Made by a program: the position numbers and the translations under genes. A model generated the notes under the pieces. It was not told the origin of the DNA and searched no databases. It saw only the letters and a list, made by a program, of their open reading frames with translations. A stretch of 64,000 nucleotides of DNA from assembly GCF_055900595.2 (NCBI RefSeq), contig NZ_CM148325.1; one strand, given 5' to 3'. Below, one piece after another: positions 11,858 through 64,000 of the stretch (position 1 is the first letter of the stretch; the number at the start of each line of letters is the position of its first letter).

Positions 11858-11953
11858 AAGCGAAGCTTATACATATCTTTTACATCAGCAATCTATTGTT
11901 AATCTCCAATCAATGTTACGTTGTCATCTCACTCATGCTTTGGAGGTAGTGAT

Positions 11954-12133
11954 ATGTCTTGTCCAAAATGCGGTTCTGGAAATATTGCAAAAGAAAAAAC
12001 AATGCGTGGATGGTCTGGTGATTATGTGTGCTGCGATTGCGGATACAACGACTCTAAAGACGCATTTGGAGAGCGTGGTAAAAACGAGTTTGTCAAAATT
12101 AATAAAGATCGCGAAGGCAACGGAAAAAGCTAA
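11954..12133 (+). CDS. Hypothetical zinc-ribbon protein
   Basis: CPKCG...CCDCG; GGAGG SD. Confidence 0.5.
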   Translation: MSCPKCGSGNIAKEKTMRGWSGDYVCCDCGYNDSKDAFGERGKNEFVKINKDREGNGKS

Positions 12134-12198
12134 TTTATTTATTCATATATGAAAACAATGTAACCAATATTCGAATTGAAGAACTGAAAGAACACCAA

Positions 12199-12220
12199 GC
12201 CGCCTGATGGCGGTTTTTTC
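12199..12220 (+). terminator. Rho-independent terminator upstream of xis
   Basis: GCCGCC-TGAT-GGCGG hairpin followed by TTTTTT. Confidence 0.45.
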
Positions 12221-12246
12221 TTGCGTGTAATTGCGGAGACTTTGCG

Positions 12247-12465
12247 ATGTACTTGACACTTCAGGAGTGGAACGCACGCCAGCGACGCCCAAGAAGCCTT
12301 GAAACAGTTCGTCGATGGGTACGCGAGTGCAGGATATTCCCTCCTCCGGTTAAGGATGGAAGAGAGTATCTGTTCCACGAATCAGCGGTAAAGGTTGACT
12401 TAAATCGACCAGTAACAGGTAGCCTTTTGAAGAGGATCAGAAATGGGAAGAAGGCGAAGTCATGA
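12247..12465 (+). CDS. xis: Excisionase
   Basis: 72 aa, MYLTLQEWNARQRRPRSLETVRRW..., lambda Xis. Confidence 0.92.
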   Translation: MYLTLQEWNARQRRPRSLETVRRWVRECRIFPPPVKDGREYLFHESAVKVDLNRPVTGSLLKRIRNGKKAKS

Positions 12466-17425: not shown

Positions 17426-17480
17426 CAAATGCTCCAGATATCTGCGCACCGTTAAGTACGCAGAAAGATAATAAATGGAT

Positions 17481-17605
17481 ATACTCTAAATAATTCGAGT
17501 TGCAGGAAGGCGGCAAGCGAGTGAATCCCCAGGAGCTTACATAAGTAAGTGACTGGGGTGAGCGAACGCAGACGCAGCACATGCAACTTGAAGTATGACG
17601 AGTAT
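17481..17605. repeat. ERIC (intergenic repeat unit) element
   Basis: Imperfect palindrome ATACTCTAAATAATTCGAGTTGCAGGAAGGCGGCAAGCGAGTGAATCCCCAGGAGCTTACATAAGTAAGTGACTGGGGTGAGCG... Confidence 0.7.
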
Positions 17606-17607
17606 AT

Positions 17608-19041: not shown

Positions 19042-19115
19042 TTAAAATCCTGTTCTTTCTGTATGACTTATACAGAAGTCCTTTGTTAATTGCCCTTATC
19101 ACGACAACGACCTTT

Positions 19116-20168
19116 TCAGGGAAGATAAACTTCACCGGAAAATATTTTTCTGGTCGTCCGAATAACAGATGCGCGTAAGGTTGTGGCATCCTGACCTTCA
19201 TTGCTTAAATGAACGTCGAGCGCACCACTGGGATGTTCAATATTGATATTGCCATATCCTACAGAAGGGACGATTTGTCGGGTGACGGTGCCTTCCAATG
19301 CACAACTACTGGAAATGGCAATAGCACCGGTTATCGCCAGCGCACGATGGCAGGAGTGCGGCATAAAATAACGCACATTAATTGCCCCGCCTTTCTGTGC
19401 TGGAGAAATAAGCACAGGCTTAGGGATAACCATATTACTGACATCACCTAAGCCCATTGCTTTACCCGCTTGTAGGCGGATAGATTCAATGCGGGCTAAT
19501 AATGTTTTGTCGGCATCCAGTTCCGCCGGTAATTCATAGCCTGTTTTACCCAAATAATCAGCCGGAATAATGACGACTGGCATCGCCATATCGATACAAG
19601 TCACTGGAACATCGTCAAAATAATCGATCTGATTATCAGTCGGGAAAACTTTTCCGGTTTTGGTTCCAGCGGCATTCAGGAAAGTGAGCGCAACCGGTGC
19701 GGCAGTACCCGGTACGCCGTCAATTCTGGTGCTACCCTCGTACTCGACAACACCATTTGGCGTTTGCACATCAGCTTCGATGAACGTACCCGTATTGACG
19801 TTGCGGATACGTACGCGGGTAACTGGCGAAGTCGCTGCAATCAAACCATTTTCAATGGCGAATGCCCCAACGCCAGACAGCATATTGCCGCAGTTAGGTG
19901 TAGTGTCGACACGTTGCTCATGGACGATAACCTGAGCAAACAGATAATCGACGTCAGCACGCGGATCGCTGGAACGGCTAATTATGGCGACTTTACTGGT
20001 CAGCGGATTACCGCCGCCAATACCGTCAATTTCCAGATCGTTACCGGAACCCATAATTGCCATCAATATTTTATCGCGCTGCGTTTGATCTTCGGGTAGA
20101 TGTTCCGCTAACAGGAACGCGCCCCTCGAGGTTCCACCTCGCATCATCACGCAGGGTATTTTTTTCAT
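19116..20168 (-). CDS. ybhH: PrpF-family isomerase YbhH
   Basis: 350 aa, PrpF/AcnD-accessory fold signature. Confidence 0.85.
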   Translation of the reverse strand: MKKIPCVMMRGGTSRGAFLLAEHLPEDQTQRDKILMAIMGSGNDLEIDGIGGGNPLTSKVAIISRSSDPRADVDYLFAQVIVHEQRVDTTPNCGNMLSGVGAFAIENGLIAATSPVTRVRIRNVNTGTFIEADVQTPNGVVEYEGSTRIDGVPGTAAPVALTFLNAAGTKTGKVFPTDNQIDYFDDVPVTCIDMAMPVVIIPADYLGKTGYELPAELDADKTLLARIESIRLQAGKAMGLGDVSNMVIPKPVLISPAQKGGAINVRYFMPHSCHRALAITGAIAISSSCALEGTVTRQIVPSVGYGNINIEHPSGALDVHLSNEGQDATTLRASVIRTTRKIFSGEVYLP

Positions 20169-20351
20169 AATAATGCCCTCAATTTAAAAACATAACTTAT
20201 TGCGATATGGTTACATTAAGGGCAAAGCATCTCTAATGACTTTAGCTCAACGATTAATAACATTTTTTCATTAATTTAAGTTGGCTAAATGCAGTTAAAA
20301 TTTTTAACGGCCTGTCATCCAAAATCGTCGCATCCATTTTTCGGAGTAATA

Positions 20352-21305
20352 ATGAAGCATGAATTATCAAGTATGAAGGCATTTGTCATACTGGCAGAGT
20401 CCAGTTCATTTAACAATGCTGCTAAATTACTCAATATTACGCAACCTGCATTAACGCGAAGAATAAAAAAGATGGAAGAGGATTTACATATTCAACTATT
20501 TGAGCGTACAACTCGCAAGGTTACGTTAACAAAAGCAGGAAAAAGGTTGCTCCCGGAGGCACGGGAATTAATAAAGAAATTCGATGAAACGCTTTTTAAT
20601 ATTCGTGATATGAATGCTTATCATCGTGGTATGGTGACGTTAGCGTGTATTCCGACCGCAGTATTTTATTTTTTACCACTGGCAATCGGTAAATTTAATG
20701 AGCTGTATCCCAATATTAAAGTGCGGATTCTGGAACAAGGCACGAATAATTGCATGGAATCGGTGCTGTGTAACGAATCAGACTTTGGCATAAACATGAA
20801 CAACGTCACAAATTCATCCATTGATTTTACCCCACTGGTCAACGAGCCGTTTGTGCTGGCCTGTCGGCGTGACCACCCATTAGCCAAAAAGCAGCTTGTA
20901 GAATGGCAGGAGTTAGTAGGTTACAAAATGATTGGCGTACGCTCCTCCCGCGGCAACCGACTGCTGATAGAACAGCAACTGGCCGACAAGCCCTGGAAGC
21001 TGGATTGGTTTTACGAAGTGCGTCATCTTTCGACGTCGTTAGGACTGGTAGAGGCGGGACTGGGGATTTCAGCGCTTCCTGGTCTTGCAATGCCCCATGC
21101 GCCCTATTCTTCCATTATTGGTATCCCGCTGGTGGAACCCGTTATACGTCGGACATTGGGGATTATTCGCCGCAAAGATGCCGTACTTTCTCCGGCTGCA
21201 GAACGCTTTTTTGCCTTGCTGATTAATTTATGGACCGACGATAAAGACAACTTGTGGACCAATATCGTCGAACGCCAGAGACATGCGTTACAGGAGATAG
21301 GTTAA
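20352..21305 (+). CDS. ybhD: LysR-family regulator YbhD
   Basis: N-terminal HTH; divergent from ybhH. Confidence 0.8.
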   Translation: MKHELSSMKAFVILAESSSFNNAAKLLNITQPALTRRIKKMEEDLHIQLFERTTRKVTLTKAGKRLLPEARELIKKFDETLFNIRDMNAYHRGMVTLACIPTAVFYFLPLAIGKFNELYPNIKVRILEQGTNNCMESVLCNESDFGINMNNVTNSSIDFTPLVNEPFVLACRRDHPLAKKQLVEWQELVGYKMIGVRSSRGNRLLIEQQLADKPWKLDWFYEVRHLSTSLGLVEAGLGISALPGLAMPHAPYSSIIGIPLVEPVIRRTLGIIRRKDAVLSPAAERFFALLINLWTDDKDNLWTNIVERQRHALQEIG

Positions 21306-47960: not shown

Positions 47961-49529
47961 TTAGCGTGCCGGCTGAGTAGTCGTGGAAGACTGCTCAAAG
48001 TGATAGCGACCGGTTTTCAGGCTGCTTGGGCCGAGGCGTGCAAACTTGAACATTAAGAACAATTCTGCCACCAGGAACAGGGTATACAGGCCACAAATCA
48101 GCACCATCGAGAAGATGAGGTCGCCTGCGGTCAGTGACGAGTTCGCTACAGCTGTCGGCAGCACTTCACCGATAGCCCAAGGTTGGCGACCATATTCAGC
48201 CACGAACCAGCCCGCTTCTACAGCAATCCACGGCAGCGGAATACCGTACAGTGCGGCGCGCAGCAGCCATTTTTTCTCGCCAATACGGTTGCGGATGACA
48301 CTCCAGAAAGAGAGCGCGATGATTGCCAGCAGCAGGAAGCCACACGCCACCATGATACGGAACGCGAAGTACAGCGGCGCTACACGTGGAATGGAGTCTT
48401 TGGTTGCCTGTTGAATCTGCGCTTCAGTTGCATCCGCCACGTTTGGCGTATAGCGTTTCAGCAGCAGACCGTAACCGAGGTCTTTCTTCATGCTATTGAA
48501 CTGGTCACGAACCGCCTGGTCAGTAGAACCAGAACGCAGTTGCTCGAGCAGAGAGTACGCCTTCATCCCGTTACGGATGCGTTCTTCATGCTGCACCATC
48601 AGCTCTTTCAGGCCGATAACCGGGGTATCCACGGAACGCGTTGCAATGATGCCCAGCGCGTAAGGGATCTGGATCGCAAATTTGTTCGTCTCCTCTTCCT
48701 GATCAGGAATGCCGAACAGAGTAAAGGCAGCAGGTGCAGGTTGCGTTTCCCACTCGGCTTCAATAGCAGCCAGTTTGGTTTTCTGCACGTCGCCCATTTC
48801 ATAACCAGATTCATCACCCAGAACAATAACAGACAGAACGGCAGCCATACCGAAGCTGGCAGCGATAGCAAAGGAGCGTTTAGCAAAGGCGAAGTCACGA
48901 CCTTTCAACATATACCATGCGCTGATACCGAGGATGAACATCGCGCCAGTCACATAACCAGACGCTACAGTGTGAACGAATTTCACCTGAGCAACCGGGT
49001 TAAGCACCAGCTCGGAGAAGCTCACCATCTCCATACGCATAGTTTCAAAGTTGAAATCGGATGCGATTGGGTTTTGCATCCAGCCGTTCGCAACCAGAAT
49101 CCACAGTGCGGACAGGTTTGAACCAAGCGCCACCAGCCAGGTGACACACATATGCTGAACTTTACCCAGACGATCCCAACCGAAGAAGAACAGACCTACA
49201 AAGGTGGATTCGAGGAAGAAGGCCATCAGACCTTCGATTGCCAGCGGCGCACCGAAGATATCCCCTACATAGTGGGAATAGTAAGACCAGTTAGTCCCGA
49301 ACTGGAACTCCATGGTCAGACCGGTTGCCACACCCAGAGCGAAGTTGATACCAAACAACTTGCCCCAGAACTTGGTCATATCTTTATAAATCTGTTTGCC
49401 GGAAAGGACGTAGACCGTTTCCATAATGGCCAGCAGGAACGCCATACCGAGCGTCAGTGGCACAAAAAGGAAGTGGTACATCGCGGTCAAGGCAAACTGT
49501 AAGCGCGACAGTTCGACTATATCTAACAT
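47961..49529 (-). CDS. cydA: Cytochrome bd-I oxidase subunit I
   Basis: 522 aa from [24 protein letters not shown]. Confidence 0.93.
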
Positions 49530-49866
49530 CATGACTCCTTGCTCATCGCATGAAGACTCCGAGAGTGAACCCCGTTAGAAAGGGTCACACGCATGCCCCA
49601 ATACAAAATTATTTGCTCGCCTCTATCGCTGTCTTTTCCTCAAAAGTGGAAAAGACAATGATAAAAAAGTTACAAATATGTTAATGAATAAACCAAATTG
49701 ATCCCGTAATTATATTACGCCGCAAAATCCTTACAATAAACAGGTTTTTATTGAGCAAATTTGCATTTTTCGACAGTGATCAATTTATAGCGAAATTGTC
49801 ACGCCCCCACCAATTTGATCTACGACAATTTATCGTGTTTTGCAGATTTTTTTCAAGAATTAAAAA

Positions 49867-49880
49867 TTGATTAATATCAA
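49867..49880. promoter_or_regulatory. FNR-type box in the cydA upstream regulatory region
   Basis: TTGATTAATATCAA (TTGAT-N4-ATCAA) inside the long AT-rich cydA leader. Confidence 0.5.
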
Positions 49881-50332
49881 AATCAATCGAATATGTTAAT
49901 TATGTATAAATCATAGACCATTGGTAATTTTATTGTTAATTTATTGTGAAATATTTACGTAACACAATTATTACAATAAAAAGACATAGATAAAAAACCA
50001 GTGTTTTATTTAACAGAATCGCCTTATCAACTTTTTATAATACCAATTGATTAGAGTAGCCAATTTGTTGCTATTTTACATAACATATTTTTATCAAAGT
50101 TAATTGATTGTTGCCTTTATGAGCATCGCCGTAAGACCGCCATGTTATTGTTTCATTTGTAATAATCACCAATAAGTATCGATGAGAGAGATATCGCTTA
50201 ACAGAGGCGACTGTGTCTGCATGAACACAGGCACTTTCGTCTGATAAACGAAAAATGAGCGATTTTTGCAAGTTAGTTTTTCTATAGCCGGGTACGCTGA
50301 GCGCCTCGCTTGATTACAATGAGGTTGCTGCC

Positions 50333-51277
50333 ATGGGTCTTGATAATATAGGTTATGTTGTCAATCGCTTCTCTGGTTGGCCATCAAATGATCCTCTAAA
50401 AACAGATAACGAATCAATGACATCACCCGTGACTGTGCAGGTAATAAAGTTGATTGCCGCCATCCTTGACCCACATCGGATAGTCGTTGGTATCGATACA
50501 CTTTATACAACGCAGCGCAAAACATTTACCTCAGAGGGTCAACAACTCATTGAATCAGCATTGAAAACACTTAATGTGATGAATTTAAATAACCTGGAAA
50601 CAGATCGCGATGAGGAGGGTAACTATCTGGCTTTTGGATATAACGTTGACACTCCTGACAGAATAACCGTTTCTGCTTATAATGAAAAAAAACCTTTCTG
50701 TTATGGCCAATGTCTTTTAATACAGGATGAAGAACCAGATTTATTTAACCTGGTAAAAATTAAAACCTTTGAAGCCAGGCATAATTATGTTTCTAAATTG
50801 ATGAGCGATCCGGAATTTATGTTTAAATTCAGTTATAGCACCCAACAAAATAGATTAGAACCTCATCTTCTGGTTCCCACTTATTTCCCTCTAAAAACAA
50901 ACCAACCGGTTACGCTAGAGGATGTACTGATACTTTATCGTTTCTTTAAAATGAATGGCGATTTTAATATATTAACATCAGATGAATACATGAGTATCAT
51001 GACACCTCTGATGAAGTGTGAGCGTAGTGTCCACGACCATAACAGGTATGTGACGGGCAAAGATGCTCTTCTTCTGGACAATCCTCCGTCTGGTAACCAG
51101 ATATATTTCCATATTTCCCCTGACGAATCAGCAACACTTGTCCTTTATTTTTCAGACAATAACCTTGAATCCTTCGTCTTTGAAAATGATATTCCGAGCC
51201 AGTATCGACATTTCAAAATGTTTACCAATTTAGCACTAGTTATTGATCAGTTAACCGACGCCAATCAAATACTTTAA
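50333..51277 (+). CDS. Hypothetical protein (314 aa), AT-rich
   Basis: Long ORF with GAGGT SD; no recognised motif, TM segment or signal peptide. Confidence 0.6.
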   Translation: MGLDNIGYVVNRFSGWPSNDPLKTDNESMTSPVTVQVIKLIAAILDPHRIVVGIDTLYTTQRKTFTSEGQQLIESALKTLNVMNLNNLETDRDEEGNYLAFGYNVDTPDRITVSAYNEKKPFCYGQCLLIQDEEPDLFNLVKIKTFEARHNYVSKLMSDPEFMFKFSYSTQQNRLEPHLLVPTYFPLKTNQPVTLEDVLILYRFFKMNGDFNILTSDEYMSIMTPLMKCERSVHDHNRYVTGKDALLLDNPPSGNQIYFHISPDESATLVLYFSDNNLESFVFENDIPSQYRHFKMFTNLALVIDQLTDANQIL

Positions 51278-51356
51278 TTTTCTATACAGCCCTGTGTAAA
51301 ATATTGCTAATCAGTGCCCGGGGTTGATTTTTATTCCTCACGGTGATATTTAAATC

Positions 51357-51779
51357 ATGACCCCATCTCAGCTCTCTTTTAATACTCTTCCTGTCAATGC
51401 AACATGCACTTCAGAGATAACAGTAAACACACAAAAATTCTCTGACATCCTCTACTCAGTGGGGTATTCCCTAAAGGATCTGGCTTATCTGAGCAGATGT
51501 CTTGCATCATTACACCCGACACTCGCCAAAAACATTTATGAAACGGAAAATCTCAGCGATCAAAAATTACTTTATATAGATTGCCGTAGTACAAATGAAA
51601 TCAAGATAAATATCTTTTTTGGTCAGCAACGAGAAGGATTAATTGAAATTAGTTCTGACACAGTCATTTTTTCGATACTGTCTTCATTGATTGACTCAGC
51701 TATTTCTGAACATCGACATCAAATCACCATTAACGATTCAAATAATTCTGAACTATTTTATGAGGATTATACTGATTAA
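51357..51779 (+). CDS. Hypothetical protein (140 aa), AT-rich
   Basis: ORF directly downstream of the 314-aa ORF, same strand; no recognised motif. Confidence 0.55.
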   Translation: MTPSQLSFNTLPVNATCTSEITVNTQKFSDILYSVGYSLKDLAYLSRCLASLHPTLAKNIYETENLSDQKLLYIDCRSTNEIKINIFFGQQREGLIEISSDTVIFSILSSLIDSAISEHRHQITINDSNNSELFYEDYTD

Positions 51780-52321
51780 ATCCACTCTGTGCGAACCTGT
51801 CCTGCATTTATGCCAGAAGTATTAGAATCTTTGATTAACGTTACTCGTACTGGTAGCACCTTCATGTGCCTCTCTTTTTTACGAACAATCAAAAGAACTA
51901 ACAAAGGGCATAATTCGTATAAATCATTAACCATTTGTTATATTCAACATTTTTTTACATTAAGCAGAGATGAATTGCAGTGAAATTCAAGTTAAATTTT
52001 ACAAAATGTATTACTCATGGCTAAAAAATCTCCCCAAAATGCAAATTAGAAGTTGATCACAATTATCTCAATACATCAAATAAAGTTAATTTTAAAAATT
52101 TAACATTCATGACATTAGTTGACATAACACGCTGAATTAAAATGAGAATTTAAAAACACACTTTAAACAATCATTTCCCGAAAGACATTTTGAAAATAGA
52201 TCAATTGCAACATTACGGTCAGATAAAGACACTCCTCTGATATTAAACCTGTGCCGTTATGAACGGCCATAAATACGACGTGTGTAACTTAATTTACTCT
52301 CTGTCTTACAAAGGATTACCC

Positions 52322-52771
52322 ATGAAGAAAGCAACACTTGTGATTGGCGTTATTGGCGCGGACTGCCATGCAGTAGGCAATAAAGTTCTGGACCGCGTTT
52401 TTAGCAACCATGACTTCAGAGTCATTAATCTGGGCGTAATGGTCAGCCAGGACGAATATATTGATGCTGCCATTGAAACTGGCGCTGACGCGATTGTCGT
52501 CTCCTCTATCTATGGGCATGGCGATATCGATTGTCTGGGCATGCGCGAACGCTGCATCGAGCGTGGGCTGGGTAACATCCTGCTCTATGTGGGCGGTAAC
52601 CTGGTGGTCGGAAAACATGACTTCGCTGACGTGGAAACCAAGTTCAAAGAGATGGGATTTGATCGCGTCTTTTCCCCAAGTCATGACTTAGAAGATGTTT
52701 GTCAGCTGATGGCCCACGATATCAACCAACGTCATGACGTTGATACTCGCATTCTTGAAGAGGCAATCTGA
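52322..52771 (+). CDS. Glutamate mutase sigma (B12-binding) subunit
   Basis: 149 aa; cobalamin-binding DxHxxG motif (DCHAVG); followed by L and E subunits. Confidence 0.85.
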
Positions 52772-54159
52772 TGCAAATCGTCTCTGTCGATATTGGATCG
52801 ACGTGGACCAAAGCAGCCCTCTTCACCCGGGAGGGGGACGCGTTAACGTTGGTTAACCACGTTCTGACCCCAACCACCACCCATCATCTGGCGAAGGGGT
52901 TTTTCTCCAGCCTGGACCAGGTGTTAAACGTAGATGATGCCCTCCCCCTGTTAAACAGTGGTGAGGTTGCATTGAAGTATTCCTCCTCTGCCAAAGGTGG
53001 GCTGGCGGTTGCCGCAATGGGATTAGTGCCTTCTATCACTCTGGAAACCGCGAAAGTAACCGCTCACTCTGCGGGTGCTAAAATTGCGCAATATTACGCC
53101 TACAAGCTGAACCGCCGTGATATCCAGGCACTGGAAGAAACGCAGCCCGATATTCTCTTGTTCACCGGCGGCACCGACGGCGGAGAAGAAAGCTACGGAC
53201 TGAATAACGCCCGTGTGCTGGCAGAATCCAAACTCGACTGCGCCATTATTTATGCCGGAAACCGGGATATTCAGGACAAGGTGCAGGAGATCCTCGGGCA
53301 TAAAGACCTGACCATCGTCGACAACGTTCTGCCCGATCTTGACCATCCGAACCCTTTAGCTGCACGCCAGGCTATCTGCGACATATTCCTTAAACGCATC
53401 GTTAAAGGGAAAGGGCTGGATGTCATTGTTGATAAAACAGGCGAAGAACCAATGCCGACACCATGGACGGTCTTTGAACTGGTTAAGGCAATCAGTAACG
53501 TCGATCACAGCTGGAAAGAGTTCATGCTGATCGACATGGGCGGCGCAACCACCGATGTCTATTCCGCCTGTGCCAACACGCTCTCGCCCGACACTGTTTT
53601 ACATGGCGTACCGGAACCCTTCGTAAAACGGACGGTGGAAGGCGATCTGGGAATGCGCGTCTCGGCAATGGTGGTTGGTGAAAGTGCGAAAGAGTTAGTC
53701 AGTGTGAATTTTGCTCAGCAACCCGCACAGTTGGACGCTTTTTATCATTACCTCCGTCATCTAGTCGCTCATCCCGACTACTTACCCGCGAATGCAGATG
53801 AAAAATATTTCGATACCGTCCTGGCCGGACTGTGTGTGGGTTATGCCACCGAAAGACATGCGGGCACCAAAAAAGAGGTCTGCACCTGCGTCGGCAATGT
53901 CGATTTACAGATGGGACGTGACCTGACAACCGTGCGTAAAGTCGTGGGTTCCGGCGGATGGCTCTCGCGTGCCAGTCAGTTCGATATGCATCGCTGGTTG
54001 AAATACCGCGAGTTAAACGACGACGGTAAACGCATTCTCTTACCGACCGAATTTGAATATTACCGCGATTCCCGGGGGCTATTACCACTGCTGGCAAACG
54101 TCGCCAGAGTCGATCCGCTGGCCGCCGCGCGCACCAGTATTCAATGCTTAACCCTATAA
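52771..54159 (+). CDS. Glutamate mutase-associated L protein (MutL/GlmL-type ATPase chaperone)
   Basis: 462 aa, ASKHA-type N-terminus (VDIGSTWTKAA), between S and E subunits. Confidence 0.8.
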   Translation: MQIVSVDIGSTWTKAALFTREGDALTLVNHVLTPTTTHHLAKGFFSSLDQVLNVDDALPLLNSGEVALKYSSSAKGGLAVAAMGLVPSITLETAKVTAHSAGAKIAQYYAYKLNRRDIQALEETQPDILLFTGGTDGGEESYGLNNARVLAESKLDCAIIYAGNRDIQDKVQEILGHKDLTIVDNVLPDLDHPNPLAARQAICDIFLKRIVKGKGLDVIVDKTGEEPMPTPWTVFELVKAISNVDHSWKEFMLIDMGGATTDVYSACANTLSPDTVLHGVPEPFVKRTVEGDLGMRVSAMVVGESAKELVSVNFAQQPAQLDAFYHYLRHLVAHPDYLPANADEKYFDTVLAGLCVGYATERHAGTKKEVCTCVGNVDLQMGRDLTTVRKVVGSGGWLSRASQFDMHRWLKYRELNDDGKRILLPTEFEYYRDSRGLLPLLANVARVDPLAAARTSIQCLTL

Positions 54160-54177
54160 CAATTAAGGCTGCAATCA

Positions 54178-55623
54178 ATGGAACTTCGAAATAAGAAATT
54201 AACCCATGACGAATTCATGACCGAGCGGCAACAGGTATTGAAAACCTGGGAAACCGGCAAGGATGTTGAAAACTTTGAAGATGGCGTTAAATACCAACAA
54301 ACCATTCCTGAGCATAAACGCTTCTCTCTTGCCCTGCTGAAAGCAGACAAGGAAGGTAAAACCCTTAGCCAACCGCGCGCAGGCGTGGCGCTGATGGACG
54401 AACACATCGAACTACTGAAAACACTACAAGAAGAGTGCGATCTGCTGCCGAGCACTATCGATGCATATACCCGTCTGAATCGGTACGAAGAAGCGGCTGT
54501 AGGGATTAAAAAATCCATCGAAGCCAGAACCTCTAAACTGAACGGTTTACCGGTAGTTAACCACGGCGTCGCAGCTTGCCGTCGCCTCACCGAAACTCTG
54601 CAAAAACCGCTACAGATCCGCCACGGCACGCCAGATGCGCGTCTGCTGGCTGAAATCTCGATGGCCAGCGGCTTTACCAGTTATGAAGGCGGCGGCATTT
54701 CCTACAATATTCCGTATGCCAAGCGCGTAACGCTGGAAAAATCGATCCGCGACTGGCAGTACTGCGATCGTTTAATGGGGATGTACGAAGAACACGGGAT
54801 CCGCATCAACCCCGAACCGTTTGGCCCACTAACGGGTACGCTGATCCCGCCGTTTATCTCGCACTCTATCGCAATAATCGAAGGCTTGCTGGCACTGGAA
54901 CAGGGTGTGAAGTCTATCACCGTTGGTTATGGTCAGGTCGGTAGCCTGACGCAGGATGTTGCGGCGATCCAGTCTCTGCGGGAACTTGCACACGAATACT
55001 TTCAGAGCTATGGCTATACCGACTACGAATTAAGTACCGTGTTTCACCAGTGGATGGGCGGCTTTCCGGAAGACGAATCGAAAGCGTTCGCCATTATCTC
55101 CTGGGGTGCTGCCGTCGCGGGGATGTCTGGTGCTACCAAAGTCATCACCAAAAGTCCGCACGAAGCCTGGGGCATCCCGACTGCTGCTGCCAACATTCAG
55201 GGGCTAAAAGCCTCCCGCCAGATGCTCAACATGGTCAACGAGCAGAAATTCCCGCCGTGCCCGGCGGTTGAACTAGAAATTGAACTGATTAAGAGCGAGG
55301 TTCGCGCGGTACTGAACAAAGTGTTCGAACTGGGTAATGGTGATATTGCGCGCGGTACGGTGCTGGCATTTGAAGCGGGCGTACTGGATGTGCCGTTTGC
55401 GCCAGCCGCCTGCAACGCAGGCAAAATTCTTCCGGTCCGTGACAACACTGGCGCGATTCGCGTACTGGAGGCCGGAGCCGTTCCATTGCCAAAAGATATT
55501 CTCGACCTCCACCACGATTACGTTGCTGAACGCGCGCGCTTTGAAGGACGCCAACCGACATTCCAGATGGTTGTAGATGACATCAATGCTGTATCCCACA
55601 GTAAATTAATAGGAAGACCATAA
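54178..55623 (+). CDS. glmE: Glutamate mutase epsilon (catalytic) subunit
   Basis: 481 aa, TIM-barrel mutase signature; coupled to methylaspartase. Confidence 0.88.
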   Translation: MELRNKKLTHDEFMTERQQVLKTWETGKDVENFEDGVKYQQTIPEHKRFSLALLKADKEGKTLSQPRAGVALMDEHIELLKTLQEECDLLPSTIDAYTRLNRYEEAAVGIKKSIEARTSKLNGLPVVNHGVAACRRLTETLQKPLQIRHGTPDARLLAEISMASGFTSYEGGGISYNIPYAKRVTLEKSIRDWQYCDRLMGMYEEHGIRINPEPFGPLTGTLIPPFISHSIAIIEGLLALEQGVKSITVGYGQVGSLTQDVAAIQSLRELAHEYFQSYGYTDYELSTVFHQWMGGFPEDESKAFAIISWGAAVAGMSGATKVITKSPHEAWGIPTAAANIQGLKASRQMLNMVNEQKFPPCPAVELEIELIKSEVRAVLNKVFELGNGDIARGTVLAFEAGVLDVPFAPAACNAGKILPVRDNTGAIRVLEAGAVPLPKDILDLHHDYVAERARFEGRQPTFQMVVDDINAVSHSKLIGRP

Positions 55624-56864
55624 TGAAAATAAAACAGGCCCTTTTTACCGCTGGCTACTCCTCATTCTATTTCGATGATCAGCAGGCGATAAAAAACGGA
55701 GCGGGTCACGACGGTTTTTTTTATACCGGGGAGCCAGTAACACAGGGGTTTAACGCCGTACGTCAGGCCGGGGAGTGCGTTTCGGTTCAGTTGATTCTGG
55801 AAAACGGTGCGGTCGCCGTAGGCGACTGTGCTGCCGTACAGTATTCCGGGGCAGGTGGTCGCGATCCACTGTTCCTCGCAGAGCACTTTATTCCGTTCCT
55901 CAACGACCATATCAAGCCATTACTGGTAGGCCGCGATGTGGATGCTTTCCTGCCGAATGCCCGTTTCTTCGACAAATTGCGTATTGACGGCAACTTGCTA
56001 CATACCGCCGTGCGCTACGGATTATCACAGGCGCTGCTTGATGCTACCGCGCTGGCAACCGGCCGTCTGAAAACTGAAGTGGTCTGTGATGAATGGCAGT
56101 TGCCACGCGTGGCGGAATCCATTCCATTATTTGGTCAGAGCGGCGACGATCGATATATCGCTGTCGATAAGATGATCCTTAAGGGCATCGACGTGCTGCC
56201 CCATGCGCTGATTAATAACGTCGAAGAGAAACTGGGCTTTAAAGGTGAAAAACTGCGCGAATATGTCCGCTGGCTGTCGGATCGCATTCTGAGCAAGCGC
56301 ACCAGCGCACGCTACCACCCTACCCTGCACATCGATGTATACGGCACTATTGGTCTGATCTTCGATATGGATCCGCTTCGCTGTGCGCAATACATCGCCA
56401 GTCTGGAAAAAGAGGCGCAAGGCCTGCCGCTCTACATTGAGGGGCCGGTCGATGCCGGTAACAAGCCCGATCAAATCCGCCTGCTGACCGCGATTACCAA
56501 AGAGCTGACGCGCCTCGGTTCCGGCGTGAAAATCGTGGCCGATGAATGGTGTAACACCTACCAGGATATTGTTGATTTCACTGATGCCGCCAGTTGCCAC
56601 ATGGTGCAAATCAAAACCCCGGATCTGGGCAGTATTCACAACATCGTCGATGCAGTTCTTTATTGCAACAGCCACAGCATGGAAGCGTACCAGGGCGGCA
56701 CCTGCAATGAAACTGATGTCAGTGCCCGCACCTGTGTCCACGTCGCCCTTGCTGCTCGCCCCATGCGTATGCTGGTAAAACCAGGGATGGGCTTTGACGA
56801 AGGCCTCGATATCGTCTTCAACGAAATGAATCGTACTATCGCGCTGTTGCAGGCTAAGGATTAA
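55623..56864 (+). CDS. 3-methylaspartate ammonia-lyase (enolase superfamily)
   Basis: 413 aa; start overlaps glmE stop. Confidence 0.88.
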   Translation: MKIKQALFTAGYSSFYFDDQQAIKNGAGHDGFFYTGEPVTQGFNAVRQAGECVSVQLILENGAVAVGDCAAVQYSGAGGRDPLFLAEHFIPFLNDHIKPLLVGRDVDAFLPNARFFDKLRIDGNLLHTAVRYGLSQALLDATALATGRLKTEVVCDEWQLPRVAESIPLFGQSGDDRYIAVDKMILKGIDVLPHALINNVEEKLGFKGEKLREYVRWLSDRILSKRTSARYHPTLHIDVYGTIGLIFDMDPLRCAQYIASLEKEAQGLPLYIEGPVDAGNKPDQIRLLTAITKELTRLGSGVKIVADEWCNTYQDIVDFTDAASCHMVQIKTPDLGSIHNIVDAVLYCNSHSMEAYQGGTCNETDVSARTCVHVALAARPMRMLVKPGMGFDEGLDIVFNEMNRTIALLQAKD

Positions 56865-56867
56865 CAA

Positions 56868-58238
56868 ATGGCTCGTTCTTTTAAAGTCTTATCGCCAACG
56901 GCAATCCTCGGGTATGGATTCCCGGAAGAGAGCTTCCGCAAAGCGATGGCAGAATCGCCCGATCTGATCGCCGTTGATGCAGGCTCTTCCGATCCTGGCC
57001 CCCACTACCTCGGGGCGGGCAAACCGTTTACCGATCGCGCAGGGGTCAAGCGCGATCTACGCTATATGATCACCGCAGGCGTGCAAAATAATATACCGGT
57101 AGTGATCGGAACGGCCGGCGGTTCTGGTGCCGCTCCACACCTGGAGTGGTGCCGAGAAATAATTCATGAGATTGCCCGGGAAGAGCACCTCGCGTTCTCG
57201 ATGGCGCTGATCCCGGCAGACGTTGACAAAGCCATCGTCCACCAGGCGCTGGATAACGGCAAAATCACGGCGCTGGATTTTGTCCCGCCGTTAACCCACG
57301 ACGCGATTGACGAAAGTACGTATATCGTCGCGCAAATGGGCATCGAACCCTTCCAGCAGGCGCTGAAAGAAGGCGCGCAAGTGGTGCTGGGCGGGCGCGC
57401 TTACGACCCGGCCTGCTTTGCTGCGCTACCGATCATGCAAGGCTTTGATGAAGGTCTGGCGCTGCATTGTGGGAAAATCCTTGAATGCGCGGCAATCGCC
57501 GCAACGCCCGGCTCAGGCTCTGACTGTGCGATGGGCATCATTGATGACAACGGCTTTACGCTGAAGACATTTAATCCGAAGCGTAAATTTACCGAAACGT
57601 CAGCGGCTGCACACACACTGTATGAGAAATCCGATCCCTACTTTCTGCCAGGACCTGGCGGCGTGCTAAACCTGAAAGGTTGCACATTTAAAGCGATCAA
57701 TGATGGCGAAGTTTACGTCAGCGGTTCTAAGCATGAAGAAACGCCCTATGCCCTGAAACTGGAAGGTGCGCGGCGGGTGGGTTTCCGCTGTTTGACCATC
57801 GCCGGAACGCGCGACCCGATCATGATCGCCGGGATCGATAACATCATCGATGAAGTCAAAACCAGCGTTTCGCGTAATCTGTCCTTAGACGATGACAGCA
57901 TTCGCATCAATTTCCACCTGTACGGCAAAAACGGGGTGATGGGCGACCATGAACCGATGCAAACTGCCGGGCATGAGCTGGGGATTGTCCTTGATGTAGT
58001 TGCACCGACCCAGGATATTGCCAATAGCGTTTGCTCGCTGGTGCGCTCTACCATGCTGCACTACGGCTATGAAAACCGCATCGCTACCGCAGGCAACCTG
58101 GCGTTCCCGTTCTCCCCTTCTGATATCCAGGGCGGGCCGGTATACGAATTTTCCATATATCACCTGATTGAAGCCAACGACGCTCTGCGTTTTGATTTCC
58201 ATATTGAACAGGTGACGCCAGAAGGAGTTCAGGCATGA
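56868..58238 (+). CDS. DUF1446 (AtuA-like) family protein, function unknown
   Basis: 456 aa; N-terminal pattern recalled for AtuA-like proteins; coupled to next ORF. Confidence 0.65.
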   Translation: MARSFKVLSPTAILGYGFPEESFRKAMAESPDLIAVDAGSSDPGPHYLGAGKPFTDRAGVKRDLRYMITAGVQNNIPVVIGTAGGSGAAPHLEWCREIIHEIAREEHLAFSMALIPADVDKAIVHQALDNGKITALDFVPPLTHDAIDESTYIVAQMGIEPFQQALKEGAQVVLGGRAYDPACFAALPIMQGFDEGLALHCGKILECAAIAATPGSGSDCAMGIIDDNGFTLKTFNPKRKFTETSAAAHTLYEKSDPYFLPGPGGVLNLKGCTFKAINDGEVYVSGSKHEETPYALKLEGARRVGFRCLTIAGTRDPIMIAGIDNIIDEVKTSVSRNLSLDDDSIRINFHLYGKNGVMGDHEPMQTAGHELGIVLDVVAPTQDIANSVCSLVRSTMLHYGYENRIATAGNLAFPFSPSDIQGGPVYEFSIYHLIEANDALRFDFHIEQVTPEGVQA

Positions 58239-58552
58239 AACAGTCAATTGTCTCACTGGCGCAAGTCATTCGTTCGAAAAATGCCGGACCTTACGAACTG
58301 GTTTTAGATATTTTATTTAAAACCAAAGAAAACTATGAGCGAGTAAAATCATCAGGGCAATTAACCCCAGAACTGATTGCGCGCTTATATCATGTTGAAC
58401 CTGACTTTATTCATCGTATTGTCTGGTTTGATCCTTCTAACGCAGTAAAAATTGTCATGCCACGAGATATTATCTCCGGGAATGTAGGTGACAATGATGT
58501 CTATGGCGCACAGCAACATGCACCTTTATTAAATATGAGTTTCGATTTGTAA
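58235..58552 (+). CDS. DUF4387-like small protein, partner of the DUF1446 protein
   Basis: 105 aa; start overlaps upstream stop. Confidence 0.55.
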   Translation: MKQSIVSLAQVIRSKNAGPYELVLDILFKTKENYERVKSSGQLTPELIARLYHVEPDFIHRIVWFDPSNAVKIVMPRDIISGNVGDNDVYGAQQHAPLLNMSFDL

Positions 58553-58712
58553 AAATCCGAACACTTTTAGCCAACTGACATCCCGTCACTTATTGCAGCT
58601 CAACACTTCAGCTATTTGTAAGGTTGTTATAGCAGGTAGATGCCTGAATCTCTATTCAGGCATCCACTTCTCCTGATTCTGATTTATCGCCGTGCACCTG
58701 ATGGAGGAAAAA

Positions 58713-59993
58713 ATGAAGAAAATAAGTTTAACCACGATGATTCTTTTGGCGCTGGTACTTGGAATGATTATCGGCGTAGTGCTCAATAACACTGCTTCAC
58801 CGGAAACAGCAAAACTCTATGCGCAAGAAATATCGATATTCACGACGATTTTCTTACGACTGATAAAAATGATTATCGCTCCGTTAGTGGTCTCTACCCT
58901 GGTGGTAGGTATTGCTAAAATGGGCGATGCCAAAGCCCTTGGTCGTATTTTTTCTAAAACACTCTTTTTATTTATTTGCGCCTCATTGCTGTCAATTGCC
59001 TTAGGCTTGATAACGGTAAATTTCTTCATGCCAGGCACAGGAATTAATTTTGTTGCACACGGTGCCGAAACCACCGGAGTGGTCGCGTCAGAACCCTTTA
59101 CACTAAAAGTATTTATTTCGCATGCTTTCCCCACCAGCATTGTCGATGCCATGGCGCACAATGAAATTTTGCAAATCGTGGTGTTCTCAATTTTCCTCGG
59201 CTGTAGCCTGACGGCGATTGGTGAGAAAGGCAGCGCCATCGTTCACGCCTTAGATTCGCTGGCACATGCCATGTTAAAGCTCACTGGCTACGTCATGCTC
59301 TTCGCTCCCCTGACCGTATTCGCCGCTATTTCAGCATTGATTGCTGAACGAGGACTGGCAGTTATGGTGAGCGCCGGGATCTTTATGGGTGAATTTTATT
59401 TCACCATGTTATTACTTTGGGTGCTGCTTATCGGTCTGGCCATCGTTTATGTCGGCCCCTGCATCAGACGCCTGACCCGCGCCCTTTCTGAACCCGCCCT
59501 GCTGGCATTTACCACATCCAGTTCTGAAGCTGCTTTTCCGGGAACGCTTGAAAAACTGGAGCAATTTGGCGTTTCCCCCAAAATTGCCAGCTTTGTCTTA
59601 CCCATTGGCTACTCATTTAATCTCGTTGGATCAATGGCCTACTGCTCCTTCGCCACAGTTTTCATCGCCCAGGCCTGCAATATCCATTTATCCATCGGTG
59701 AGCAAATCACCATGCTGTTGATCCTGATGTTGACCTCGAAAGGAATGGCTGGCGTACCACGCGCCTCAATGGTGGTTATCGCCGCCACGCTCAACCAGTT
59801 CAATATTCCGGAAGCGGGGCTGATCTTGCTGATGGGCGTTGATCCGTTCCTTGATATGGGGCGTTCCGCGACAAACGTCATGAGCAACGCAATGGGCGCT
59901 GCGATGGTGAGTCGGTGGGAAGGCGAACATTTCGGCGAGGGTTGTCGGGGTAAAGCATTAAAACCCAATGAATCGAACGTTGCTCTGCCCTGA
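58713..59993 (+). CDS. Dicarboxylate/amino acid:cation symporter (GltP/DctA family)
   Basis: GGAGG SD; polytopic membrane protein with DAACS-type motifs. Confidence 0.8.
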   Translation: MKKISLTTMILLALVLGMIIGVVLNNTASPETAKLYAQEISIFTTIFLRLIKMIIAPLVVSTLVVGIAKMGDAKALGRIFSKTLFLFICASLLSIALGLITVNFFMPGTGINFVAHGAETTGVVASEPFTLKVFISHAFPTSIVDAMAHNEILQIVVFSIFLGCSLTAIGEKGSAIVHALDSLAHAMLKLTGYVMLFAPLTVFAAISALIAERGLAVMVSAGIFMGEFYFTMLLLWVLLIGLAIVYVGPCIRRLTRALSEPALLAFTTSSSEAAFPGTLEKLEQFGVSPKIASFVLPIGYSFNLVGSMAYCSFATVFIAQACNIHLSIGEQITMLLILMLTSKGMAGVPRASMVVIAATLNQFNIPEAGLILLMGVDPFLDMGRSATNVMSNAMGAAMVSRWEGEHFGEGCRGKALKPNESNVALP

Positions 59994-60100
59994 GGGGGAT
60001 CTTAAGAAATCAGAAGCCAATGACTACGCATTTTTATAAGCCGGATCATGAAGTTAGACGGCAATTAAGTAACACTAACGTTTAAGGTGAAAAGTGAAAT

Positions 60101-61753
60101 ATGTCCAAACCATTTATCTGGCAAGAACCGTTTCTACAAAATAAAGACGGTACAGAATATACATTAATTAGCGATCAACATATTACAGTAACGGAATTAG
60201 ACGGCGAAGAAGTAATAAAAATCGCTCCTGAAGCATTAACGCTGCTTGCCCGGCAGGCATTTTATGAAGCCTCTTTTTTCTTACGTTCCGCTCATTTGCA
60301 ACAGGTCGCCAGCATTCTTAACGATCCGCAGGCCAGCAGTAATGATAAATACGTTGCGTTGCAGTTATTACGTAATGCTGAAGTCTCAGCAAAAGGGGTA
60401 TTACCCAACTGTCAGGATACCGGCACCGCAACTATTGTTGCCAGTAAAGGGCAACAGATATGGACGGGAGGTAACGACGCTGAAGCCTTAAGCAAAGGCA
60501 TTTACAGTACTTTCCAGGAAAATAATCTGCGCTTTTCACAAAATGCGCCGCTGGATATGTATACCGAAGTCAATACGCAAACCAATCTTCCGGCGCAGAT
60601 TGATATCAGCGCTGTCGCTGGTAATGAGTACCATTTTCTCTGTGTTAATAAAGGGGGCGGCTCCGCCAATAAAGCTGCACTTTATCAGGAAACCAAATCC
60701 TTATTGCAACCAGAAAAACTGACCGCATTTTTAATCGACAAAATGAAATCGTTGGGCACGGCCGCCTGCCCGCCCTACCACATCGCCTTTGTCGTCGGAG
60801 GGCTTTCAGCCGATCAAACCTTAAAAGTTGCCAAGCTGGCCTCTACGAAATATTACGACAATTTGCCCACCAGCGGAAACGAGCAGGGACAAGCATTCCG
60901 TGATATTGAGCTGGAAAAAGCGTTGCTCGAAGCCAGTCAGCAATTTGGTATTGGTGCGCAATTTGGGGGTAAATATTTCGCTCATGATATTCGCGTCATT
61001 CGTCTGCCGCGTCACGGTGGCTCCTGCCCGATAGCTATGGCGCTCTCCTGTTCTGCCGATCGCAATATCAAAGCCAAAATTAACAAGCACGGTATCTGGC
61101 TGGAAAAACTCGAACACAATCCGGGGCAATATATTCCAGCCTCATTGCGGGAAGAAAATCACTCGCTACATGTACACCTGGATCTAAACCGTCCGTTGCG
61201 TGACGTGATGCAGGATCTCGCCAGATTACCGGTAGGTACCCGCGTGTCGTTAAGTGGTCCCATCGTAGTGGCGCGCGATATCGCCCACGCAAAAATAAAA
61301 GCGCGGCTGGATAGCGGCGAATCGATGCCGGATTACCTGAAGCATCATATTGTCTATTACGCTGGCCCGGCGAAAACACCGGAGAACATGGCCTGCGGTT
61401 CACTGGGTCCAACCACGGGCGGTCGAATGGACGGTTATGTCGAAACCTTCCAGGCGGCTGGCGGCAGTCTGGTAATGTTATCGAAAGGTAACCGCAGCCA
61501 GCAGGTCACCGATGCCTGTCACAAACATGGCGGCTTCAATCTGGGAAGTATTGGCGGTGCAGCTGCGTTACTGGCGCAAGAATATGTCAAAAGTCTGCGT
61601 TGCCTGGAATACCCGGAGCTGGGTATGGAGGCGGTGTGGATGATGGAAGTGGAAAATCTGCCCGCATTCATCCTGGTTGATGATAAAGGCAATAATTTCT
61701 TTAGCCAGTTTGAGCAGCAACACCGCTGCGCCAGTTGCCCTGCGGGACATTAA
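60101..61753 (+). CDS. fumD: Class I (Fe-S) fumarate hydratase paralogue, likely mesaconase
   Basis: 550 aa, strongly FumA-like along full length; name fumD is from memory of the O157 mesaconase. Confidence 0.8.
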
Positions 61754-61762
61754 GGAAAATGA

Positions 61763-62365
61763 ATGGAAGCGCGAATTTCAACTGAACGGCATGTGCAGCG
61801 CCAGCAGAAATTGAAGGAACAGGTCGATACGCGCGTCGCGGCGGCGATAGAGAAAAAAGGGATCTTGATTGTTTTCACCGGCAACGGCAAAGGGAAATCC
61901 ACTGCCGCGTTTGGTACTGTAACGCGCGCGGTGGGCCATGGCAAAACGGTGGGGGTTGCGCAGTACATCAAGGGGCAATGGGACAACGGCGAATACAATC
62001 TTCTCCAGCCGCTGGGAGTGGAGTTTCATATTATGGGAACCGGTTTTACCTGGGAGACACAGAACCGGCAAGCGGATATCGATGCGGCGAAAGAGGTCTG
62101 GTCGGAAAGCAAACGGATGCTGGCTGACAAGCGTTACGACTTAGTGGTGCTTGATGAGCTCACCTATATGCTGGCTTACCATTATCTGGATACAGAAGAA
62201 GTGATCACTTCTCTGCAAAACCGTCCGGCACAACAAAGTGTCATTGTCACCGGACGCGGTTGCCACAGTCAGATATTAAAAATGGCGGATACGGTAAGTG
62301 AAATCCGCCCCGTCAAACATGCTTTTGATAACGGCATTCAGGCCCAGCCGGGGATCGACTGGTAA
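61763..62365 (+). CDS. Corrinoid adenosyltransferase (BtuR/CobA family)
   Basis: 200 aa; P-loop GNGKGKSTAAFG; strongly BtuR-like. Confidence 0.88.
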   Translation: MEARISTERHVQRQQKLKEQVDTRVAAAIEKKGILIVFTGNGKGKSTAAFGTVTRAVGHGKTVGVAQYIKGQWDNGEYNLLQPLGVEFHIMGTGFTWETQNRQADIDAAKEVWSESKRMLADKRYDLVVLDELTYMLAYHYLDTEEVITSLQNRPAQQSVIVTGRGCHSQILKMADTVSEIRPVKHAFDNGIQAQPGIDW

Positions 62366-62368
62366 TAA

Positions 62369-62400
62369 CTGCGCCTGGCATCCCGCCAGGCGCAGGTTTT
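62369..62400. terminator. Bidirectional terminator between convergent genes
   Basis: 10-bp stem CTGCGCCTGG/CCAGGCGCAG with T-run. Confidence 0.5.
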
Positions 62401-63304
62401 ACATCTCCTGCGGTACGACCGATTTCGCCAGCAACCATTCACGAAATTGCTGCAAGTGCGGAGAGTCAGACTTCTCTTCCTGCCACGTCATAATAAAACG
62501 ATTACCGGTACGAATAGGCACATCACAGGGAATCACCATATCGCCACTATCCAAATCATGTTGAATAGCGAACCGTGGTAACAGCGCCACGCCGAGATTA
62601 GAGCGCACGGCGGCAATCAGCATTGAAAGCAAATCGAAACGTGGTCCGTTATTGACCAGCGGACTGCTAACGCCAGATAAAGCAAACCACTCTTCCCAGC
62701 CAGTAATACGGGTGCTTTGATGCAGAAGTGGTAACTCAGTAAGCAGTTCTGCCACTGACAGTTTTTGATCGGACATTGCAAGCAAACTGCCGCTGCATAC
62801 CGGCAAAATCTCCTCTTCAAAGAGATATTCTACTTCCGCCCAGGGCGCGCAAAAATTTTCGCGCATAATGACAGCATCGTACTCCCGATTAAGAAAATCG
62901 CCGTTATTAGCTAAAGAATGAATATTAACAATAATATCGGGATGTAACTTTGTGAATTCATGTAAATTTGGGATTAACCAGTGGGTACTAAAAGTAGGAT
63001 TAACGGCAAGTTCAATAACCTGAACCGTAGGCTGCCATGTCATAATCGTATTGGTATCGCGCTCCAGCTTATTTAATGTTTCTTTTACTATCCCCAGGTA
63101 ATACTTCCCTGCATCATTAAGAAAAATGCGTTTTTTAGAGTGTGAAAATAACGGAGTATGTAAAAATTCCTCCAGCGCACTTACTTGTCTGAATACAGCA
63201 CTTTGGGTTAACGCTAACTCCTCTGCCGCTCTGGTATAACTTTCATGTCGTGCGACGACCTCAAAAGTCACCAGCAGCTCCGTTTTAGGTATTTTTCCTC
63301 GCAT
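62399..63304 (-). CDS. LysR-family transcriptional regulator (likely regulator of the island operon)
   Basis: N-terminal HTH (ESYTRAAEELALTQSAVFRQV); start taken at second ATG. Confidence 0.8.
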   Translation of the reverse strand: MRGKIPKTELLVTFEVVARHESYTRAAEELALTQSAVFRQVSALEEFLHTPLFSHSKKRIFLNDAGKYYLGIVKETLNKLERDTNTIMTWQPTVQVIELAVNPTFSTHWLIPNLHEFTKLHPDIIVNIHSLANNGDFLNREYDAVIMRENFCAPWAEVEYLFEEEILPVCSGSLLAMSDQKLSVAELLTELPLLHQSTRITGWEEWFALSGVSSPLVNNGPRFDLLSMLIAAVRSNLGVALLPRFAIQHDLDSGDMVIPCDVPIRTGNRFIMTWQEEKSDSPHLQQFREWLLAKSVVPQEM

Positions 63305-63517
63305 AATGCCGTCCGTGAAAAAATAACAATTCAAAAATTATTTTATAAAAAACAGTAGCACTAATGAATATCATAATTCAAATAAACAAACCAGTCAGCT
63401 ATATGTCTAACCAGGAAAATAAAGTGACAATAATCCTAAAACAGGAATTTCACCTCAGTTATCCGCATGCAATACTTTAAAGCTATTATTGCAAGAATAT
63501 TATTCATATACATGAAT

Positions 63518-63641
63518 ATACTCTAAATAAGTCAAGTTGCAGGAAGGGAACAAATAATGAATATCCAGAAGCTTACATAAGTAAGTGACCTGGGTGAGCG
63601 AACATCGATGCAGCACATGCAACTTGAATTATGACAAGTAT
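63518..63641. repeat. ERIC element (second copy, with internal substitution/insertion)
   Basis: Shares both arms with the 17481..17605 copy. Confidence 0.65.
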
Positions 63642-63892
63642 ACAATGATAAATTTATATACCCTATGTTATATATTATCTATGTCCGGTTAAATTGAATG
63701 AGTCATAGCCTTAAAAGACTTCACAAAAGATAATTCCTCTTTAACAATAAGCCAGATTTACCACTTGTAAAACTTGCTATCGCTGCATACACTACGCGCG
63801 TTTTCTTTCCCTTTTGCTGGCTGCTGACCGGAAAGACAAAATTACCCTCGCAATACAGGGGGTTGATTAACGTCTATATTTCAGGACAGCGT

Positions 63893-64000
63893 TATGCATC
63901 ATCTTTCAAGGCTTGATAAAGCCTTTCTGCGCAAAGGGATCCAACTTTCCCGCGCCAACAATATTGTTTCATTATGTCGTCCATCAGGAGCCAGTGCCCG
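63893..64000 (+). CDS. Possible 5-prime end of an unidentified gene running off the window
   Basis: ATG with AGGA upstream and open frame to window end; not recognised. Confidence 0.25.

Follow-up and report, generated by a model that had tools for sequence, protein, structure and literature searches.

In enterobacteria that carry the methylaspartate pathway for fermenting glutamate, Kronen & Berg (2015, PMC4682846) called the fate of citramalate ‘still unclear’; they noted a DUF1446 gene downstream of mal, where clostridial glm–mal clusters carry citDEF/citCXG instead. O157:H7 extracts with active citrate lyase, isocitrate lyase or methylcitrate pathway had no citramalate lyase activity, none being seen from citrate lyase, isocitrate lyase or methylisocitrate lyase of E. 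coli, and most enterobacteria were without genes for citramalyl-coenzyme A (CoA) lyase (PMC4682846). Here we consider a gene pair, cmlA and cmlB, lying downstream of mal in a 64 000-nucleotide stretch of contig NZ_CM148325.1 (assembly GCF_055900595.2); this whole stretch is called the window below. It belongs to an E. coli chromosome, and several complete genomes contain DNA 100% identical to that of the pair. An earlier note, made from the letters of the window, had observed that the step after mesaconate hydration was unaccounted for, the same gap that stands in print since 2015, and had proposed the pair as a candidate for this step or an alternative one.

In a search of PDB sequences the full-length matches were to entries 9ERQ and 9EVF, where CmlA corresponds to chain A and CmlB to chain B (E = 6.5e-293 and 5.2e-57), with identities of 420/456 (92.1%) for chain A and 88/104 (84.6%) for chain B and no gaps. 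The depositors named these chains ‘Citramalate lyase, subunit A (cmlA)’ and ‘subunit B (cmlB)’; the entries, released in October 2025, bear the titles ‘AMPPNP - citramalate complex’ (9ERQ) and ‘ADP - pyruvate complex’ (9EVF), and it is from these titles that the bound nucleotide is known here. Among the 36 differences between the window CmlA and the PDB sequence none is situated in columns invariant across an alignment of 16 sequences, which includes the window CmlA, so that the invariant columns are present in the window protein by construction. Furthermore, a preprint of January 2026 (bioRxiv 10.64898/2026.01.16.699985) reports that in vivo cmlAB of Raoultella planticola converts citramalate formed from mesaconate to pyruvate and acetate: an acetyl-CoA auxotroph grows on mesaconate, the growth is gone once the cml plasmid is cured, and isotope label passes from mesaconate to acetyl-CoA via FumA plus Cml.

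Judged by sequence, the pair is very probably the E. coli copy of the two-subunit citramalate lyase CmlAB, acting in the last step of glutamate fermentation. We hold it highly likely that CmlAB is, as predicted, a citramalate lyase free of CoA and acyl carrier protein, cleaving FumD-made (S)-citramalate to pyruvate and acetate and so completing a methylaspartate route encoded in one operon. The candidacy proposed earlier is thus supported by the crystallised orthologues, by the cmlAB-dependent growth on mesaconate and by the published gap. Two things had not been foreseen, namely that the function was already solved by others and that the enzyme binds ATP/ADP. The function of CmlAB is, indeed, known and not new here, and credit for it is due to those who deposited 9ERQ and 9EVF. 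Our analysis establishes to which families the two proteins belong, that they are orthologues of the crystallised enzyme, that A and B pair obligately and that their genes are linked to mal, glm and mesaconase genes; the identity of substrate and product is taken from others, through the ligands in the PDB entries and the in vivo function given in the preprint.

Both genes are real, intact open reading frames (ORFs) on the plus strand. The larger, cmlA (56868–58238; ATG start, 456 aa), is predicted to encode the large subunit of citramalate lyase and cmlB (58235–58552; ATG start, 105 aa) the small one; the earlier note had placed two translationally coupled ORFs of these lengths at exactly these coordinates. 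The TGA of cmlA and the ATG of cmlB share the tetranucleotide ATGA, with GGAG ∼10 nt 5′ of the cmlB start, while the gap between the mal stop and the cmlA start is 3 nt, with AAGGA preceding cmlA; both junctions are consistent with translational coupling. The membership in DUF1446 (AtuA-like) and DUF4387, which the note had given, was borne out by Pfam hidden Markov models: CmlA matched AtuA/PF07287 (formerly DUF1446) with E = 1.2e-18 (residues 63–392; model positions 61–395 of 437) and CmlB matched DUF4387/PF14330 with E = 2.9e-39 (residues 6–101; model positions 2–97 of 98). All close CmlA homologues have PF07287 as a precomputed match. NCBIfam (release 20) yielded no family for CmlA or CmlB, and RefSeq, on 100%-identical DNA, names the products ‘acyclic terpene utilization AtuA family protein’ and ‘DUF4387 domain-containing protein’.

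The pair stands where clostridia have the Cit proteins. With CitC, CitD, CitE, CitF, CitX and CitG of E. coli K-12 as queries, tblastn (E ≤ 0.01) found no homologue in the 64-kb window, in agreement with the earlier remark that the cluster has no obvious citramalate lyase; CitE, a member of the same family as (S)-citramalyl-CoA lyase (Ccl), was among the queries without a match. Nor were citCDEFXG seen within 10 kb of cmlA in any of 80 related loci (tblastn, E ≤ 1e-6); a canonical citramalate lyase encoded nearby, which would have spoken against the proposed role, was thus found neither in the window nor within 10 kb in the related loci. Two unrelated sets of proteins, CmlAB and Cit, occupying one pathway position make the pattern expected of non-orthologous displacement, and CmlAB is a non-orthologous replacement of the clostridial CitDEF-type citramalate lyase.

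These 80 loci were collected with a profile built from 16 diverse CmlA homologues (61–89% identical, 74% mean column identity) and run on GTDB with one genome per species; the best 80 loci, with CmlA 57–92% identical, were taken, and neighbours were scored by tblastn with the window proteins. They span Enterobacterales, Aromatoleum/Azoarcus, Propionivibrio, Riflebacteria, Aminicenantes, Spirochaetes, Lentisphaerae, Bacillota and others. We saw cmlB directly 3′ of cmlA in 79/80 loci, the lone exception being a contig end. The co-occurrence with glutamate mutase genes, suggested before as a check, was observed as well: glmE was near cmlA in 61/68 loci, and mal was directly upstream in 67 of the 72 loci having at least 1.4 kb of upstream flank. 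A class I fumarase, whole or split, was near cmlA in 37/60 loci. Even two distant loci (65% and 61% identical; one from Riflebacteria, the other unrelated) have the order GntR–glmS–mutL–glmE–mal–AtuA–DUF4387 with fumarase genes nearby. In nearly all non-enterobacterial clusters a gene for an unnamed P-loop + AlaX-like protein follows cmlB; this protein may be an accessory factor of the CmlAB system.

The Cml clade is at least 55% identical, more distant family members being at most 50% identical, and the AtuA + DUF4387 superfamily as a whole comprises at least 2384 clusters at 50% identity. DUF4387 was adjacent or fused in every family member examined, including members 41–44% identical and a fungal fusion; the neighbours of these distant members and of the fungal fusion were uninformative.

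Several points weigh against assigning the last step of glutamate fermentation to the pair. The function is known from the names that the depositors chose, from the bound ligands and from a single preprint using the enzyme as a tool; full-text literature searches found that preprint and no primary biochemical paper on CmlAB. The activity of the E. coli proteins is predicted by orthology to the Raoultella enzyme, and a simple lyase reaction does not explain the bound ATP analogue. In five of the 72 loci (Accumulibacter, three Shewanella and Desulfospira) the pair occurs with no mal or glm nearby, hence the tie of CmlAB to glutamate fermentation is not a strict one; the neighbours of the standalone pairs (among them genes for HrpA, an M4 protease, FadE, RND efflux and corrinoid methyltransferase) gave no functional clue in these five loci. 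Finally, neither expression of the cluster nor growth of O157:H7 on glutamate was detected by Kronen & Berg (PMC4682846), and with the O157:H7 cluster not induced the physiological role in E. coli is unproven.

Could the pair be something other than a lyase? Several database entries (P0002, P0060, P0072) name close homologues ‘3-methylaspartate ammonia-lyase’, and the Pfam family is named for the terpene-utilisation protein AtuA; one could imagine, then, an accessory or second methylaspartate ammonia-lyase or glutamate mutase, or an AtuA-type enzyme of acyclic terpenes. We regard all this as very improbable. The pair has no similarity to methylaspartate ammonia-lyase, since TIGR01502 matches the upstream gene only and Pfam shows AtuA only; the pair is found without mal in some genomes; neither the window nor related loci contain atu genes (such as those for geranyl-CoA carboxylase); and the crystal complexes hold citramalate and pyruvate. 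These ligand-bound structures effectively refute the pair both as a second methylaspartase and as an AtuA acting in terpene catabolism. The ammonia-lyase names on CmlA homologues most probably spread to them from the annotation of the adjacent gene; this odd naming had already been remarked on, with no explanation, by Kronen & Berg (PMC4682846).

Turning to the enzyme itself, the 16-sequence alignment showed strong conservation in CmlA of D37-x-G-S-x-D-P-G-P-x-Y-L-G-x-G-K52, G81-x-x-G-G-x-G-A-x-x-H91, G176-R-x-Y-D-P181 and H200-x-G-K-I-L-E-C-A-A-I-A-A-x-P-G-S-G-x-D-C220, along with five invariant cysteines (C95, C207, C220, C272 and C389). Segments 40–53 and 213–217, left unplaced by AlphaFold, are among the most conserved, and conservation combined with low AlphaFold confidence is typical of ligand-closing loops. 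In CmlB, R13-S-K-N16-x-G-P and G91-x-Q-Q-x-x-P-L98 are invariant, even in paralogues 44–47% identical. The Gly-rich loops 37–52, 81–91 and 213–217 are compatible with binding of an adenine nucleotide beside the substrate; the flexible Gly-rich loops of CmlA (37–52, 81–91 and 200–220) probably make up the nucleotide-binding site together with two CmlB motifs, RSKN and QQH. We infer that the active site would lie at the A/B interface, where the carboxymethyl arm of the tertiary β-hydroxy acid would probably be released as a C2 unit by a retro-aldol reaction at the nucleotide-binding site.

What the nucleotide does can be read in two ways with the identity of the enzyme unchanged. ATP could be a stoichiometric co-substrate: the C4 carboxylate would be phosphorylated to citramalyl phosphate, which would be cleaved to pyruvate, acetyl phosphate and ADP, acetate kinase then regaining the ATP. 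Such phosphorylation would activate the α-carbon as a thioester does, making the reaction a counterpart, free of CoA, to the acyl-thioester chemistry that citrate and citramalate lyases use. Direct deprotonation α to a free carboxylate is chemically hard, which we count in favour of a co-substrate; phosphorylation of the C4 carboxylate would solve the problem of a carbanion beside a free carboxylate. The AMPPNP–citramalate and ADP–pyruvate complexes do resemble a substrate pair and a product pair, and conserved Gly-rich loops with low AlphaFold confidence are typical of phosphate-binding lids. The preprint (10.64898/2026.01.16.699985), however, speaks of acetate with no mention of ATP, argues that 20 mM acetate disfavours the cleavage thermodynamically, and describes evolved strains with up-regulated Acs, the acetate-activating enzyme. 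The genes of AckA/Pta were near cmlAB in 1/80 loci, a count that is uninformative as these are housekeeping genes. On balance we see ATP as co-substrate as a rather unlikely possibility, yet one worth stating. If true, it would be an acyl-phosphate lyase mechanism with no precedent among citrate-lyase-type reactions, and the same chemistry would reach the whole AtuA + DUF4387 superfamily, including fungi and the acetate-releasing step of acyclic terpene degradation.

Alternatively, the nucleotide could be allosteric or structural, or could only prime the enzyme, e.g. by ATP-dependent acetylation of one invariant CmlA cysteine in the way CitC primes citrate lyase, with turnover being a plain lyase reaction giving acetate. 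Acetate given as the product in the preprint with ATP unmentioned agrees with such a role, as do the five invariant cysteines of CmlA; the pairing of AMPPNP with citramalate and of ADP with pyruvate is, however, explained more simply by a substrate state and a product state. We consider this a possible, though tentative, reading.

As a separate observation, a fungal gene for an AtuA + DUF4387 fusion (L088:1-9630; 608 aa, with introns) is located ∼7 kb from an acetate kinase gene, a gene that few fungi have. With one case only, this may be coincidence, but it bears on the acetyl-phosphate hypothesis.

With CmlAB taken as a citramalate lyase, the genes around it would suffice for the following pathway. 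Glutamate would be converted to (2S,3S)-3-methylaspartate by GlmSE with the help of GlmL and CobO; Mal would turn it into mesaconate, FumD would hydrate the latter to (S)-citramalate, and CmlAB would split (S)-citramalate into pyruvate and acetate (the two-carbon unit). The genes form a plus-strand row glmS–glmL–glmE–mal–cmlA–cmlB–transporter–fumD–cobO at 52.3–62.4 kb. In this row glmS (52322–52771; B12-binding subunit S of glutamate (methylaspartate) mutase; NCBIfam NF002612, E = 1.3e-75; glmS in RefSeq) is followed by glmL, or mutL (52771–54159; accessory/reactivating protein of the mutase; TIGR01319, E = 6e-266, and NF040745 above the cut-off), by glmE (54178–55623; catalytic subunit E; TIGR01503, E = 6.8e-259) and by mal (55623–56864; 3-methylaspartate ammonia-lyase; TIGR01502, E = 2.4e-163). 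On the other side of the pair there is a gene for a dicarboxylate/amino acid:cation symporter of the GltP/DctA type (58713–59993), presumably the glutamate importer, which scored under the DctA and GltP equivalog cut-offs, bears its name in RefSeq and was labelled GltP by Kronen & Berg (PMC4682846); the pair does lie, as had been noted, between methylaspartate ammonia-lyase and a transporter. The row is completed, also on the plus strand, by fumD (60101–61753; class I fumarase/mesaconase making (S)-citramalate; NF011921, 1271.7 bits, above the cut-off) and cobO (61763–62365; cob(I)alamin adenosyltransferase, providing the mutase with adenosylcobalamin; TIGR00708, E = 1.7e-73). FumD of the same cluster was characterised as a mesaconase (Kronen & Berg, PLoS One 2015, PMC4682846).

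A terminator-like hairpin follows cobO at 62369–62395 on the plus strand (11-bp stem with 9 G-C pairs; a consensus match only). It was the top-listed terminator-like site in 49500–64000, with the longest and most GC-rich stem, and nothing comparable was seen in the interval from mal to cobO; it is likely the 3′ end of the glmS–cobO transcription unit. In the scan for promoters and terminators the counts were no higher than in shuffled sequence, and only the hairpin after cobO was convincing. Next to it, on the minus strand and divergently oriented, is a LysR-family gene (62399–63334; matches to GcvA-like LysR models below the cut-off), presumably the regulator of the cluster; its position is kept in Enterobacterales loci. 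The untranslated gap between cmlB and the transporter (139 nt to the GTG start of the longest ORF, 160 nt to the RefSeq ATG at 58713) contains a perfect 11-bp inverted repeat at 58639–58664, GATGCCTGAAT-CTCT-ATTCAGGCATC. It is not a typical terminator because a T-run is absent; a hairpin that stabilises mRNA or takes part in its processing is conceivable, as is a palindrome bound by a protein. The overall folding of the 160-nt region was no better than that of shuffles (z = −1.1).

Considering the rest of the window, we saw that the 36% G+C stretch between cydA and glmS has two hypothetical ORFs, 50333–51277 (314 aa) and 51357–51779 (140 aa); the former had no Pfam match and both had no PADLOC match. 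This stretch was covered at ≥80% in ∼1134 genomes, near the count of those carrying the glm–cml cluster, and by these similar counts the two ORFs appear to be part of the island. An uncharacterised di-/tricarboxylate cluster, ybhJ, ybhI, ybhH and ybhD (15164–21305), is located ∼35 kb from the mesaconate-producing operon: ybhJ codes for an aconitase-like hydratase, ybhH for a PrpF-like isomerase annotated ‘4-oxalomesaconate tautomerase’, ybhD for a LysR protein and ybhI for a DASS anion symporter, the last being intact in the window and disrupted by IS3 in strain E200086. Positions 1–13513 are the end of a lambdoid prophage abutting ybhC, with replication, Rad52-like, LexA-like and toprim genes and an integrase ORF at 12443–13513; in E200086, a strain with the glm cluster in common, ybhC is instead adjoined by uvrB and the bio operon. 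This prophage region was covered at ≥80% in 1/5426 complete E. coli genomes.

The pair itself was present in 1125 of the 5426 complete E. coli genomes; the cluster was there over its whole 10.1 kb in 1117, indicating inheritance as one unit. In E200086, 100% identical over cmlAB, fumD is split by an IS1A insertion (L001:12234-14663), thus the pathway is broken in some carriers; the window fumD is intact (550 aa). Carriers make up about one-fifth of complete E. coli genomes, and there are many among the genomes of Citrobacter, Klebsiella, Salmonella arizonae, Yersinia, Morganella and Hafnia. The pair would close the gap printed in 2015, the fate of citramalate in the enterobacterial methylaspartate pathway, and two large families, DUF1446/AtuA and DUF4387, receive a first function. 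As RefSeq and NCBIfam have no functional name for the pair, metabolic reconstructions miss a complete route from glutamate to pyruvate and acetate. For metabolic engineering, CmlAB is useful as a small CoA-independent module for citramalate cleavage (preprint 10.64898/2026.01.16.699985).

The closest described system is CmlAB of R. planticola. It likewise consists of two genes, for proteins of 456 and 105 aa in the PF07287 and PF14330 families, and the synteny glm–mal–cmlAB–transporter–fumD–cobO is common to the window and a Raoultella-like locus (L013); the window proteins differ from it by 36 (CmlA) and 16 (CmlB) substitutions and belong to another host species. More distant is AtuA of Pseudomonas and Thauera (∼600 aa), the namesake of PF07287, with DUF4387 fused or adjacent. 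In the literature AtuA is given, tentatively, an analogous lyase reaction that acts on 3-hydroxy-3-isohexenylglutaryl-CoA and would likewise set acetate free, the source again being the carboxymethyl arm of a tertiary 3-hydroxy acid; this assignment was never proven, and the same step has also been ascribed to LiuE. AtuA is a distant paralogue, its presumed substrate is a different CoA ester, and the window locus has no atu neighbours. The classical lyase of the Clostridium tetanomorphum type, CitDEF + CitCXG (EC 4.1.3.22, 4.1.3.6), has the same net reaction, the same pathway position and the same place in glm–mal clusters; however, CmlAB shares neither sequence nor fold with citramalate/citrate lyase, has no acyl carrier protein (CitD), phosphoribosyl-dephospho-CoA group or activation genes, and has, by the titles of 9ERQ and 9EVF, an adenine nucleotide bound instead. 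The other route from citramalate to pyruvate and a C2 unit, a citramalate CoA-transferase together with Ccl of the HpcH/CitE family, differs in that activation by CoA comes first, the product is acetyl-CoA and the sequence is unrelated to CmlAB.

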